DNA from: Bacteroidales bacterium
GTDB taxonomy: Bacteria; Bacteroidota; Bacteroidia; Bacteroidales; UBA932
Assembly (NCBI GenBank): GCA_029010575.1
Contig: JAQXKS010000061.1
Location: 20,580-84,579, forward strand
Reading direction: 5' to 3'
Length of the DNA: 64,000 nucleotides
Part shown: one piece after another, positions 1-5,659 of the stretch
Layout of the letters: every line of letters begins with the position of its first letter
How positions within the stretch are numbered: the stretch's first letter is position 1
Position numbers and translations under genes: made by a program
Notes under the pieces: model-generated
The model's input: the letters and a program-made list of their open reading frames with translations, nothing else
What the model was told of the DNA's origin: nothing
Database searches by the model: none

Positions 1-464
1 TCAAGACTCCCATTGTTGACGATAATAGCGGAATAGAAATGATCTGCCAGTCTGACTCTTTCCTCATCCCTCTTTTGTCTTTCTTCATCGATGTCTATAA
101 GATTTTTCACATCTCTTCGTATATAAATTGGAATGATACGAAATTCAAGTTGGAATTTTCTCTGCATTTCCACCAAAGCCCTTTCGTCAATGATGTAAGT
201 ACATGGTCGATATTGGGGAACCTGAGCTTTATTGGCCCAATAATGGTGGCCCCCAAACTGGGTATAGGCAAGCATTACATCTTTTGATGGCATCTGCTCT
301 TCAGTTACAAAAAGATGTTCAACCCCATCTTGTTCCCCTGGACGCATTGGCCTGGTGGTATAGGAGATTATCGTAGGAATGTTATGATGCTGGCAAAGAT
401 AATTGGCCAGTGTAGTTTTCCCACATCCAGAGGGGCCTACAATTGCGATGATTGTTCGTTTCAT
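1..464 (-). CDS. guanylate kinase-like (d)NMP kinase; C-terminal end runs off the window
   Basis: Own minus-strand translation from ATG at 464: MKRTIIAIVGPSGCGKTTLANYL.. (P-loop). It is followed by TTRPMRPGEQDGVEHLFV, close to the guanylate-kinase signature TTRxxRxxExxGxxYxF. ATGA overlap with the stop of the upstream gene. Absent from the ORF track because no stop lies in the window. Confidence 0.6.
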   Translation of the reverse strand, partial: MKRTIIAIVGPSGCGKTTLANYLCQHHNIPTIISYTTRPMRPGEQDGVEHLFVTEEQMPSKDVMLAYTQFGGHHYWANKAQVPQYRPCTYIIDERALVEMQRKFQLEFRIIPIYIRRDVKNLIDIDEERQKRDEERVRLADHFYSAIIVNNGSL

Positions 465-2632
465 AGTATTTCCAATACGCTTTTTCTATAGAATTGTAAG
501 TTATTCTTGCCCTGATAATCGCTGTATTTCACAACCGCAGAGCAAATAATCAACTTGTCCTTAGCGTGCAACAATTGCCCACGCATTTCTGCATACTCTT
601 CACTCCAAACAATACATTCACAGGTATCGTTATTTTGCTGCAAGACCATTTTACAGAAGGTCTTTTTCTCACCTGTTTTCTTATCTTGGTATTGTTTTTC
701 CTCTACTTCAACTACGGTTGCACAAATAGCCACTTTTCTGTCTTCCTCTTCCAGAGGGGCAATATCTTGGATAGTGACATACGAAGCTCTTCCCTTGATT
801 TTAGTCTTGGCCTCTGAATTATCATAGATACGCTTATAATCTATAGCACCCATTCCAGATACTGCTATTTGTTGTTGGCTCCACCAGTAGTGCTTACCAC
901 GCATATCTTCCGGGACATCTTTCTCCGTAATTTCAAAGCCAAGTTGCGTAGCTGCCTTTTCCATTATTGCATAACGCTCCACTACAGATTCAGCGTGCTC
1001 CAGTTTGTCAAAGCAACCGGCAAAGATGAGATTTCTGATGTGTCGCGCATTAACTGGACATCTTGTTGCTTCATCCTCGTTGTCGGGATCATCCCAGTAT
1101 TCGTATTTTTTCAACTTATACTTGAAGATACGGTCAATGAAGTTCTCAATGCTGGTAAATTCTCCATTCTTGTCTCGCTCATTGATAATCCACTCAACCG
1201 CCTTTATTCCAAGCATCTTAATTCTGGAAAGAGACCAGAAAATTGAGTTTGTATTATAATCCGTGTAAAAGATTTGCCTGCTGATATTGATGTCCGGAGC
1301 TACTACCTTGGCATTACTACAAGCTTCCATTTCGCCCATTAAGGATACAATTTCCTTATCATCGGCCCATTGAAGAGCAACGGTATAGAAAGCTACCGGG
1401 AAGTTAGTTTTTAGCCACGCTCCCGCATAAGCAGTAGCAGCATAGGCAGTAGCGTGAGATTTATTGAAGCAATATGTACCGGCATCTTCAATCTGCGCCC
1501 ATATCTTATCGGCATCTTCCTGAGGGCAACCATTTTCTTTTGCCCCTTTCATAAACTTTTCCTTCATGGCCTGGATCTTGTCCACTTTCTTTTTAGACAC
1601 GAACTTCACCAGTTTCACACCATCTCCAAGGCTGAATCCCCCTACCTCACGAGCCATACTTACAATCTGCTCTTGATATACCACTACTCCGAATGTATTT
1701 TTCAGAGAATTATATGTACCCCAAAGATATACTGGGGCTACCAAACCATTCTTACAGTTTACATATTCATCGATATTGCCCATCGTAGCCGGACGATAAA
1801 TTGCATTGGCGGCAATCAAATCTTCAAGGCAATTGGGTTTCATATCTATCAGCAGTTTTGTAATACCCTTGGAACTGAACTGGAAGACATTTTGTGTATA
1901 GCCTTTACCAAGTATTTCATAAACCTTAGGATCATCCATATCCCCAGTTACGATACCTTCCAATGACACATCTTTACCGTAATGCTCTTTGATAAGGTCG
2001 AATGTTTGATGAAGTTTGGAAAGTTCTTTGGTAGCTAAGCAGTCGTTTTTTAGCAATCCCAATTCATCCAGCTCATATCCATCATTTTCGCTGACCAATA
2101 CTCCATCTATTTTCTTAATTGGTACGAAATCAAAACACTCCATATCTTCGCCGTCTTTCTCATCAGGCGTGATAAGTAATGCTGAAGCGTGTATTGAACT
2201 GGAGCGAGGCTGAAACATCAGCGTTCTGATGTCTTCAAACAGTTGTGGGTAGTCAGCAATGAACTTGGCAACCTTTTTCTCAGTTGCAGCTAATTTGAAG
2301 ATACCTGTATAGTCACACTTATCATCATCAAAGATTGCTGTGATATAGTTAACGAGGCTTACTGGTATCCTCATTGTACGAGCCACATCTTTAAGGCACG
2401 CCTTAACTTTAAGCGTAGTCAAGGTTCCAGCAGAAAATACTCTCTGCTTCCCATTGTGATTATATCGCTGCTCGGTATATGCCTTGACATCTTGCCTCCT
2501 GTCTGACTGAAAGTCGCAATCTACATCTGGAAGACTTCCTCCGGGGCCTTGTAAATAACCTTTATCAACAAAGGTATCTAATACAGTAACCGGGGAGTTG
2601 GTATGCCTAATTTTAACGCTTTTAATTTTCAT
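461..2632 (-). CDS. dnaE: DNA polymerase III alpha (DnaE-type), C-terminal fragment (palm catalytic aspartates, fingers, C-terminal OB-like region)
   Basis: After a 32-aa non-homologous head it reads [50 protein letters not shown], the PDxDxDF catalytic block and following region of DnaE. Also [24 protein letters not shown] (conserved F-N-K-S-H-x-A-Y motif). Confidence 0.85.
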   Translation of the reverse strand: [723 protein letters not shown]

Positions 2633-3956: not shown

Positions 3957-5659
3957 AACTCGTCAATCGTAAAGAGTTCATCCTTGTTATCGAACAGAAT
4001 AATGTCCTCATCTCGGAGTTCGTCTGCATATATCGTGATGGGTGCTTCCTCTCCTTCACGCTTTACATACAACTGTGCATCCTTGTCAATTTTTATCGTT
4101 TTGCCGTTTTCAAGTGTAATTTCCACATAATCTGTTGAAGAGATGTCTTCACCTATTATGGTTGTGTCTGAAGGGTAAAGACCTGCGCGTTCCGGCAAAA
4201 GGAAACGCTCAAAAATCAGATCATACTTCAACGGATCAATTAGCGTGATTCCCAGCAAGTAAAGAAGAAGAGAACCGGCGGCTGAACCTCGCCCACAACC
4301 TACCAAAATATTATTCTTACGGCTCCAGTTACAAGTATCGTATTGTACAAGAAGGTAATCAACATTGTTCGTGCTTTCAATGATGTATTTTTCATACTCC
4401 ATCTGATTACGATATTTTTCCTGGCTTTCTTTATCTTTAGGAACGAGCCTGTCAAACCCCTCTTCAAGTAGTTGACAAAACATATTATGAACAGTGCCAT
4501 ATTTTTCCTTTTCCTCAGGAGTCATTGTGTATTTAGGCATAAAGTTCCTATCATTCTCAAACTTAGCCTCAGCATGTTCAGCGATGTAGTTGGCATTATC
4601 AACACATTCACGGAACAATTTGTCAATATCCCAACGCTCGGCATCAAACAGATTAGCAAATAGCGCATAATGCTCATCTGCATCTTTGAAATACTGTTCA
4701 TCACTTTGTTCGTGGGCCGCACCGCTTGCAACTTTGTTAAGGATAATTTTATTTCTTGCGTCACTTTTGTCCAAATAATATGCGTCTGTAATCAGGACTG
4801 GCGGCAATTTGTCATATAACTTATGGAAGTATAGTTTCTGGGCCTCTAATACGCGTATATCTATCCTCTCGGCCTTGAATTCAGTTAAATCTACCTGGAA
4901 GAATGTTTTATCAAACTTCGTAATCAAATCTTCCATTTGAACTGGATGGGAAATGAGCCAGTCTGCCGAATATTTATCAAACACGAGCACATTACCCTCC
5001 CCACGATTTTTCAGTTCATTAAAGGTGACGGTCTGATCTTCACTATCCACCATTATAGCTTTCTGAATACGAAGCAGGTTTCTCAGGCCCTTTTGTGTCT
5101 GAACATATACCTTGGCCCCTACAGTTTCTTCTCCGTACTTAAAGGTCAAAGAATAACCAAAAACCCATTTGATTCCAGCTGCCGAACAAACCTTCTGAAG
5201 ATTGTAACAAGCAGCCATTGTATTTCGGTCGCAAATACCTATAGCCTTATGACCACAAAACACAGCTTTCTTAACCCACATTTCGGGCATAAAGCTGCCA
5301 TTGAGCAATTCAAACGGGCTATGACACCCCAGATTTACAATTTCATACTGATGTTGAAGTTCCGCTTTTATTCCTACATATTTCAAGATATTCAGAGCAA
5401 ATCCTTTGCGTAAATCAAAGTAATACCAATTGTCACCGAATTTGAAAACTATGTAATTGATGCCCTCAGCGATCAATACGCTCGGCTCTTCAACACTGTT
5501 GAAAATCAATTCACCATCATTGTTCAGACGAAAGATAGAATTCAACTTATTGGTATTCTCATAGTACGCCTTGCCCAATCCTGGCATTTCAATTACCTCG
5601 TTGTCGATGATATTATACTGTATTTTATTGGCTTGCAGCCATTCAATCAAATCATTCAT
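3953..5659 (-). CDS. dnaE: DNA polymerase III alpha (DnaE-type), N-terminal fragment (degenerate PHP domain to start of palm)
   Basis: PHP-like region [32 protein letters not shown]. It ends with [40 protein letters not shown], the conserved [17 protein letters not shown] block, then a 75-aa non-DnaE tail. Confidence 0.85.
   Translation of the reverse strand: [568 protein letters not shown]

Follow-up and report, generated by a model that had tools for sequence, protein, structure and literature searches.

A two-piece DnaE polymerase in Bacteroidota phages, divided ahead of its catalytic aspartates with intein-like extensions and a helicase gene at the break

How can a replicative DNA polymerase be encoded in two pieces that part directly ahead of its catalytic aspartates, with a complete helicase gene between them? 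This question is raised by the dnaE locus of a 64,000-nucleotide (nt) stretch of DNA, hereafter the window (Bacteroidales bacterium, assembly GCA_029010575.1, contig JAQXKS010000061.1, positions 20,580 to 84,579 of the forward strand; coordinates below count from its first letter). Judged from its sequence and that of its relatives, the two-piece polymerase is real and conserved and looks functional. What is unusual here is that each piece carries an intein-like half lacking splicing residues at the break and that the cargo of the gap is a helicase, not a homing endonuclease. In the explanation that we favour, and consider probable without being secure, this is a fractured dnaE gene whose split-intein halves lost splicing and became a non-covalent clasp, the helicase being a later cargo.

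The polymerase pieces and the gene between them

Three chained open reading frames (ORFs) lie on the minus strand, at 3953-5659, 2622-3956 and 461-2632; their boundaries, once re-derived, were those of the initial annotation. According to the ORF list, they encode the N-terminal half of DnaE (568 amino acids, aa), a Dda/Pif1-like helicase (444 aa) and the C-terminal half of DnaE (723 aa), respectively, and they can be broken down as follows.

4181-5659, minus strand: N-terminal part of DnaE, aa 1-493 (Pfam PHP, E 1.7e-9; DNA_pol3_alpha positions 5-99, E 7.7e-27; phrog_405 positions 37-440)
3956-4180, minus strand: N-extension, 75 aa (LYPSDTT...FTIDEL), proposed degenerate N-half of a split intein (Hint)
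2622-3956, minus strand: gene of the Dda/Pif1-like SF1B helicase, 444 aa (Pfam PIF1, phrog_325)
2537-2632, minus strand: C-extension, 32 aa, proposed degenerate C-half of a split intein (family alignments, dN/dS, charge)
461-2536, minus strand: C-terminal part of DnaE, aa 33-723 (Pfam DNA_pol3_alpha positions 93-260, E 7.9e-23; finger domain, E 2.7e-42; HHH_6; phrog_405 positions 441-1068)

Translation also returned the 1644-bp interruption previously described (2537-4180), composed of 75 codons, the helicase gene and 32 codons. Both overlaps were read directly: the ATGA at 3953-3956 (within TTATGA) joins the stop codon of the N-half (3953-3955) to the helicase start, and the last 11 nt of the helicase gene (ATGAAAATTAA, 2622-2632) overlap the start of the C-half. 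The translations, tiled with Pfam and PHROG profiles, bear out a polymerase in two pieces, cut directly ahead of the catalytic aspartates: the 260 positions of DNA_pol3_alpha are shared out between the two outer ORFs, and the phrog_405 polymerase profile is divided by them exactly between positions 440 and 441. The N-terminal part consists of a lineage-specific N-terminus, the PHP domain and the first palm portion with GRGSAAGS at 4271-4294, and its last 11 residues ahead of the break occupy 4181-4213. The C-terminal part opens with SLPDVDCDF, starting at 2536, and holds the catalytic PDVDCDF (2510-2530) together with the fingers, HhH and OB parts. All the parts of DnaE (PHP, GRGS palm, PDxDxD, fingers, HhH and OB) are, thus, present, spread over two ORFs whose polypeptide masses are 65.9 kDa (N chain) and 82.2 kDa (C chain). 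The break sits one residue off the PER-x-S-(M/L)-PDxDxD of intact DnaE; deleting the extensions in silico makes the junction colinear with that of Taq Pol III alpha (2HPI, E 1.7e-30), apart from a gap of a single residue exactly where the chain is broken. A group I or group II intron at this site was considered and rejected, as no Rfam family reached its gathering score over positions 1-9000 and the overlapping ORFs leave no non-coding DNA.

The middle ORF matches Pfam PIF1 (E 8.7e-30, 104.4 bits against a cut-off of 25.9) and the Dda-like helicase family phrog_325 (E 3.4e-78), and its motif set is complete: a PIF1-type P-loop core with Walker A (GKAGTGKT) and Walker B (VIDEISM), and a C-terminal UvrD_C_2/SH3 region. 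Compared with the Dda/Pif1/RecD SF1B helicases of other phages, its motifs are the same and its Pfam and PHROG scores exceed the thresholds by far; only its position, inside a broken polymerase gene, is unusual. Since helicase matches occur in 954 phage records, this is a common type of phage gene. Translational coupling of the three ORFs is plausible because the helicase start and stop both overlap the flanking ORFs.

The break and its gap in related phages

Megablast of the locus against phage records gave no nucleotide-level relative. Protein searches recovered Bacteroides phage BS-TP1, which has the same order of N-half, Dda-like helicase and C-half at 65-72% identity, the human-gut contig MT835494 as a further relative and, more distantly, Cellulophaga phages phi13:1, phiST and phi19:2 and Tenacibaculum phage Larrie. 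IMG/VR added 79 related loci with 54-90% identity, most of whose contigs are about 100 kb long; both halves are visible in 68 of them, on which all counts of arrangements rest. No relative of the phi13:1 C-half was found in IMG/VR. Contig L080 was excluded from the counts: at its positions 1-110, an inverted coding copy of the N-extension is fused directly to the 3' arm of a hairpin, and the contig is probably an assembly chimera formed at that hairpin.

The “Gratiaviridae” described by Benler et al. (2021; PMC8008677) are Bacteroides phages with a DnaG primase, a phiST-related DnaE, SF1/SF2 helicases and SbcCD. The window phage appears to fit this group, judging by the content of the module around its dnaE gene (primase, DnaB, sigma factor, SbcCD, NrdD and NAD ligase) and the kinship of its DnaE to that of phiST. 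The same paper records the DnaE and DnaG genes without mention of a split, and the split is not mentioned in the BS-TP1 paper (PMC12694917) either. In pipeline annotations, these ORFs are found as “hypothetical protein”, “DNA polymerase” or two separate “Pol III alpha” genes.

A survey of relatives for intact or split dnaE and for the helicase, as the initial annotation had suggested, found genes that are intact, split without the helicase and split with it. In Chryseobacterium phage MA9V-3, dnaE is intact and reads FERFLNEGRVGK directly followed by SLPDIDND (GRVGK, then SLPDID), which places the insertion point of the window after PERAG and ahead of SLPDVD. Bacteroides phage DAC19 (L006, 2935-3150) has an unsplit DnaE of 1274 aa with a contiguous insert of about 57 aa (IYIDFIFDDEEL...GTNVHYEGHI) exactly at the break point of the window; this insert may be a fused or further reduced form of the same extension, a homology that is weakly supported. 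In the Cbastvirus phages (phi13:1, phiST and Larrie), the halves are neighbouring genes 1-2 nt apart with the same break, and their extensions are shorter but alignable (51 + 17 aa); tblastn to Cellulophaga and Tenacibaculum phages reaches into the extensions, up to residue 560 of the N-half query and from residue 1 of the C-half. The 68 IMG/VR loci are arranged as follows.

34 of 68 loci: N-half, helicase and C-half, tightly packed
11 of 68 loci: helicase and a further gene in the gap
18 of 68 loci: halves adjacent, helicase absent
5 of 68 loci: a small ORF or another gene instead of the helicase

The helicase is, hence, present in the gap of 45 loci and absent from that of 23, and a neighbour-joining tree of the C-half places it in only one of the two main gut clades, with helicase-free lineages both outside and nested within. 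The initial annotation had described the gene as split by the helicase; this cannot be upheld, as the break, with homologous extensions, exists without the helicase in the Cbastvirus phages and in those 23 gut loci. The break predates the helicase and is common to the whole phage family. We regard the helicase as later cargo in an existing gap because the split also occurs without it, because it is confined to one clade and because it belongs to a common type of phage gene.

Other genes occupy the gap in relatives, namely those of an HNH-type endonuclease (about 180 aa), a GIY-YIG-like protein of 408 aa with repeated DNA-binding motifs, a Bro-N-like protein, a methylase and a 145-aa protein, all judged by motif inspection without a Pfam scan.

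L019, L032, L037, L039, L063 and L064, about 7460-8004, and also L002: HNH-type ORF in the gap
L017/L078, 6778-8004: GIY-YIG-like ORF in the gap
L002, 5858-7530; L067/L070, 7422-7991; L027/L030, about 7567-8004: positions of gap genes in these relatives

In the window, the gap contains no free-standing homing endonuclease; the helicase is there instead. Contig L059 has a 33-codon ORF (MIPKTKTKWNTDGDYNEDNVYTTKDQDDNFNCE, 7804-7905) between the N-half and the ORF of the C-extension. The gap is a permissive landing site for genes, including mobile ones.

Extensions resembling a truncated intein, and the competing explanations

Both extensions are conserved across the family, the C-extension with the consensus MKVxxVxxxxSxxPVxVxDCFVDxGYLQGxxG, and both are under purifying selection: pairwise dN/dS values are 0.105 (N-extension) and 0.30 (C-extension), against 0.08 and 0.06 in the adjoining DnaE segments. 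The N-extension is strongly acidic (net charge -14 in the window, -8 over its last 25 aa) and the head of the C-extension is basic (+4 over the first 14 aa). Complementary charges are also found in natural split inteins (PMC2677866); here, it is the N tail that is acidic and the C head that is basic.

Several independent tests favour a Hint/intein fold for the extensions, each of them weakly. In Pfam, Intein_splicing is the commonest match of the extensions (11 of 25 members, best E 1.1e-4) and Hint comes next but one, all below the gathering score; for the N-extension of the window, the two families give E-values of 0.0035 and 0.005, likewise below threshold. Among PDB sequences, the KlbA intein (E 0.11) and the TFIIB intein (E 0.46) match best, and when the extension profile is compared with PDB sequences, an intein again comes first (E 0.3), followed by nanobodies. 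An AlphaFold2 (AF2) model built on 72 homologous N-fragments, an alignment that informs the N-extension alone, gives the core of this extension a predicted local distance difference test (pLDDT) score of 89-95 and four to five beta strands; a single-sequence run of the fused junction reached a pLDDT of 38. Searched against the PDB with Foldseek, the core model has inteins or Hedgehog Hint domains for all of its top 19 matches (probability up to 1.0, E 0.03-0.8), so that the N-extension core is, as modelled, structurally Hint-like. Finally, hhalign of the extension profile with six inteins, three of them taken from the relatives' own dnaE genes, gave a probability of 72.5% and aligned TxxH with D-x-D-A. 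The break falls after a conserved GDD-I-L-F motif and before a basic M-K-V strand, which we take, by eye against the Npu DnaE halves, to be the place where natural split inteins are split.

The catalytic residues were compared by aligning the family with inteins and with intact DnaE. All members have Leu at intein position 1; the Thr-x-x-His of block B is replaced by Asp-x-Asp-Ala, with an invariant Ala; the C-terminal His-Asn is replaced by Gly-Gly in the window and by His-Gly, His-Ser or Ser-Ser elsewhere; and at +1, most members, including the window, have Ser, but some lineages have Gln or Ala. The window has, thus, kept only the +1 Ser, with the other four of the five canonical splicing residues replaced. 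An Asp that aligns by eye with intein block F:4 is invariant in the C-extension. Two other assignments were examined and dropped: a class 3 intein, since the Cys of DCFVD is not conserved (Thr in the window, Met or Ser in others), and the Cys of the PERCG clade as intein residue 1, since it aligns with extein residue -2 of intact DnaE. Canonical inteins are present at other sites of dnaE in some relatives.

L071, 9173-10017; L075/L076, 9173-10020; L083, 9179-10014: canonical HNH-containing intein of 278-282 aa, inserted between FNK and SH (Cys1, TANHKHPT, ending VTCN before Ser)
L085, 8966-9375: canonical mini-intein of 139 aa, inserted before YQEQ (Cys1, TDDHRV, ending IVHN before Cys)

The window, although 90% identical to L071, has neither of them. 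From these sequences, inteins clearly circulate in this dnaE gene among relatives, and the contrast in catalytic residues is real.

The fused extension was also searched with phmmer against 1.84 billion representative proteins. Of its 30 matches, 28 are family members, mostly short fragments, and the full-length or near-complete ones always reach the C-terminus of a DnaE N-half; the two that remain, both long, are chance matches to repeat proteins. Among these representatives, the extension was found neither in contiguous nor in catalytically intact form. A word-indexed search with the fused junction returned 230 proteins, and each of the 120 matches listed covers the N-part or the C-part only. 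Within these protein sets, the split is fixed in the family.

The favoured explanation can be laid out as follows. An ancestor of these Bacteroidota phages would have carried an intein directly ahead of the catalytic PDxDxD of DnaE, which was then divided over two genes; its halves would have lost their splicing chemistry and been retained as a heterodimerisation module. The two chains would associate non-covalently through the acidic N-extension and the basic-headed C-extension, jointly forming a truncated Hint-like beta domain, and this association would dock the palm portion with GRGSAAGS onto the portion bearing the catalytic aspartates, giving one active site without a peptide bond. The gap would then take up genes, in the lineage of the window a co-transcribed Dda/Pif1-like accessory helicase. 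We infer, in this scheme, the intein ancestry, the non-covalent assembly through the extensions and the polymerase activity. Because the catalytic positions are degenerate, the domain is truncated and the cargo is a helicase, we file the locus as a fractured gene and not as a split intein. More tentatively, and with somewhat less than even confidence, we extend the proposal to the family: an exapted dead split intein may be an obligatory clasp throughout these ~100-kb Bacteroidota phages, the gap serving as a landing pad for a helicase, endonucleases or a methylase, and sister lineages having an endonuclease-linked cassette there, with a stop-containing insert of 7-12 nt that ribosomes would hop.

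The initial annotation could place such a locus in no described family. It shares its layout, in fact, with a described category, the “fractured genes” (Dassa et al. 2009; PMC2677866): these are host genes in which a split intein forms the break and a second gene lies in the gap, and three of the published cases are dnaE loci that differ in their integration points. As in those, an essential gene of DNA metabolism is broken at a conserved site into two adjacent ORFs on the same strand, with a gene in the gap; the relatives of the window with an HNH or GIY-YIG-like endonuclease there have the classic form. The published fractured genes keep the five catalytic residues and have an endonuclease in the gap, and trans-splicing was assumed for them (PMC2677866), whereas here four of the five residues are replaced family-wide, the domain is truncated and the cargo is a replication helicase.

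Several observations speak against descent of the extensions from an intein. The sequence matches to intein and Hint families all remain under the curated threshold (17-22 bits against 35.8 in Pfam; E 0.11-0.3 in the PDB), and the Foldseek E-values lie at 0.03-1, over 44-83 columns. The combined extension of 107 aa is below the length of any working mini-intein, and about 30 residues are missing between blocks A and B, which makes a complete Hint fold impossible. AF2 confidence is confined to the N-extension, and the pairing of the two extensions is an extrapolation from it. The corresponding segments of the Cbastvirus phages and of DAC19 are shorter still, with a homology that relies on short alignments, and no canonical intein was found at exactly this site in any relative.

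These points leave some room, though not much, for an origin of the extensions other than from an intein, which we consider unlikely. They would be a beta-rich palm-loop insertion of this DnaE clade, or sequence from an endonuclease cassette, inside which the gene was fragmented, and the tails would now be assembly domains. The contiguous insert in the unsplit DnaE of DAC19 and the free-standing HNH or GIY-YIG-like genes in the gap of relatives would fit such a history, as would the subthreshold Hint matches, and non-splicing tails have an experimental precedent: in Aeromonas phage Aeh1, NrdA is fragmented by mobE into NrdA-a and NrdA-b, whose tails are needed for activity in the absence of splicing (Crona et al. 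2011; PMC3045599). The likeness is that the active site of a phage enzyme is built from two polypeptides without RNA or protein splicing, as proposed for the window. The Aeh1 tails, however, came with the insertion of the endonuclease that is still the intervening gene, and they are not Hint-like; their function is experimentally established, that of the extensions in the window inferred. Against a non-intein origin, the top Pfam family, the top PDB sequence matches, the top 19 Foldseek matches and hhalign all indicate Hint and no other fold, and both the charge pattern and, by eye, the position of the break are those of split inteins.

We consider it improbable that, in extension of the fixed stoichiometry suggested by the initial annotation, the helicase is an integral third subunit, the split serving a 1:1:1 stoichiometry and the helicase bridging or regulating the polymerase halves. 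The overlaps at both ends of its gene and the tight packing kept in 34 related loci count in favour of such a subunit. One has to set against this that overlapping genes are commonplace in phage operons, that 23 of the 68 loci and the Cbastvirus phages have the split without a helicase in it, that 11 loci tolerate an extra gene between helicase and C-half, and that such helicases are widespread in phages with unsplit polymerases.

Even less probable is an active split intein with non-canonical chemistry that trans-splices the halves into a 136-kDa DnaE. Inteins with Ala at position 1 do exist (classes 2 and 3), and the +1 Ser of most members and the invariant Asp at block F:4 could be counted in its favour. 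Set against these are the Leu1 of all members, the change of the block B Thr and His to Asp and invariant Ala, the lack of a terminal Asn, Gln or Asp (the C-extensions end in GG, HG, HS or SS), the +1 Gln or Ala of several healthy-looking lineages, the absence of a conserved Cys that could act as class 3 nucleophile and the missing fold residues. The layout does resemble that of the trans-spliced cyanobacterial DnaE (Ssp/Npu) and Nanoarchaeum equitans PolB (cited in PMC2677866), in which the catalytic subunit of a replicative polymerase is likewise encoded by two genes with intein halves at the break (here a proposal), but those inteins are active and their genes lie far apart. The sites differ as well: the cyanobacterial DnaE intein lies in the fingers, beside FNKSH, where some relatives of the window have their separate canonical HNH intein, whereas the window is broken in the palm, before PDxDxD.

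The last possibility, a pseudogene remnant or an assembly or sequencing artefact, has nothing to recommend it except that a broken active-site motif is odd a priori, and can be given next to no weight, as the identical split recurs in the genome of the isolated, cultured phage BS-TP1 and in 79 IMG/VR loci from many samples (so that the assembly error which the initial annotation had allowed for does not explain the stop or the change of frame), both halves are full-length, dN/dS is low (0.06-0.10 for the DnaE flanks and the N-extension, 0.30 for the C-extension) and no second DNA polymerase was found among the thirteen large ORFs scanned in the window outside the locus, four of which matched nothing.

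Mini-inserts of sister phages, neighbouring genes and meaning of the split

The most novel element of the family lies in sister phages and not in the window. It is a mini-insert of 7, 8 or 12 nt, flanked directly by CCG, the Pro codon of S/A-L-P, on one side and by GAY, the codon of the first Asp in DxDxD, on the other, and it is present in at least 11 sequence variants and in both main clades; a pattern scan found its clade-I (GGHSALP) form in 21 IMG/VR contigs.

L002/L097, L056, L059, L019, L032, L026, L037/L038, L039 and L067: contigs with mini-insert variants; L051: a partial twelfth variant
L019, L026, L037/L038 and L067, about 8095; L039, about 3870; L056/L059/L077, 7991-8020; L002, 7611-7640; L051, 1-40; also L086-L106: positions of the mini-insert

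Its first codon is TGA, TAA or TAG, so that the ORF of the C-extension ends there and the polymerase resumes in the +1, +2 or 0 frame. The resumed frame of the L056 type contains no ATG, GTG or TTG upstream of the catalytic motif. A perfect hairpin of 9-10 bp ends on the take-off codon in every valid variant; it results from synonymous codon choice, and lineages differ in it by compensatory changes. Over 36 nt, its energy lies between -17.7 and -21.0 kcal/mol, against -2.6 to -14.6 kcal/mol in 37 uninterrupted variants including the window, a comparison made without correction for phylogeny. A ribosomal frameshift in a single direction was rejected, as the three insert lengths demand three different shifts. 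From its sequence, the mini-insert looks like a short translational bypass, which we put forward as a hypothesis: the peptidyl-tRNA-Pro would leave CCG and land downstream on the three bases that end the insert (CCG, GCG, ACG, TCG or CTG), restoring SLP followed by DVD exactly by one mechanism for all insert lengths.

An HNH gene lies directly upstream of the mini-insert in five lineages, and L039 has both whereas its close sister L033 has neither. The association between mini-insert and endonuclease gene is partial, since each also occurs without the other, the mini-insert in some lineages and the HNH gene in L063/L064. The T4 mobA/gene 60 cassette offers a parallel: its insert, too, has a conserved stop codon at the start, a stem-loop on the 5' side takes part, and its endonuclease is mobile (10.1101/2022.08.31.505936; 10.1101/2024.12.09.627546). 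The relatives, but not the window, resemble T4 gene 39/mobA/gene 60 (Manning & Atkins 2022, preprint) in that a replication gene is split by an endonuclease cassette, with a stop directly after the take-off codon and a 5' stem-loop. They differ in the insert (7-12 nt, 50 in T4), in the take-off codon (CCG, GGA in T4) and in the landing codons of the candidate hop, of which only two of three bases are matched in most variants.

Around dnaE, the replication module is tightly packed, and the order of the primase and DnaB genes upstream is identical in BS-TP1.

5656-6702, minus strand: Toprim primase (Pfam Toprim_2)
6704-8062, minus strand: DnaB-like helicase (Pfam DnaB_C)

Elsewhere in the window, a diversity-generating retroelement occupies 27291-35573 on the minus strand; 13 of the 14 mismatches between its template and variable repeats are at template A. 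Such retroelements are known in the related phage BS-TP1 (PMC12694917).

27291-28805, minus strand: reverse transcriptase ORF (Pfam RVT_1)
28530-28641, minus strand: template repeat
29256-29367, minus strand: variable repeat, at the 3' end of a 2106-aa ORF (29253-35573)

If the extensions do act as a non-splicing clasp, the family would offer a natural split intein retained purely for association, something that engineers make deliberately; a targeted full-text literature search found no description of a natural dead split intein kept for this purpose. A two-chain family C polymerase, if true, would mean that a chain break and a foreign domain are tolerated a few residues from the catalytic aspartates, and the unsplit gene of DAC19, if functional, that a polymerase can work with a permanent insert in this loop. 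The mini-insert, if truly bypassed, would be a second and much shorter type of endonuclease-associated translational hop in phages. The family as a whole forms a graded series, from intact gene to contiguous insert, adjacent split and split with varied cargo, and lends itself to the study of how essential genes are fragmented by mobile elements and how the resulting damage is neutralised by the hosts.

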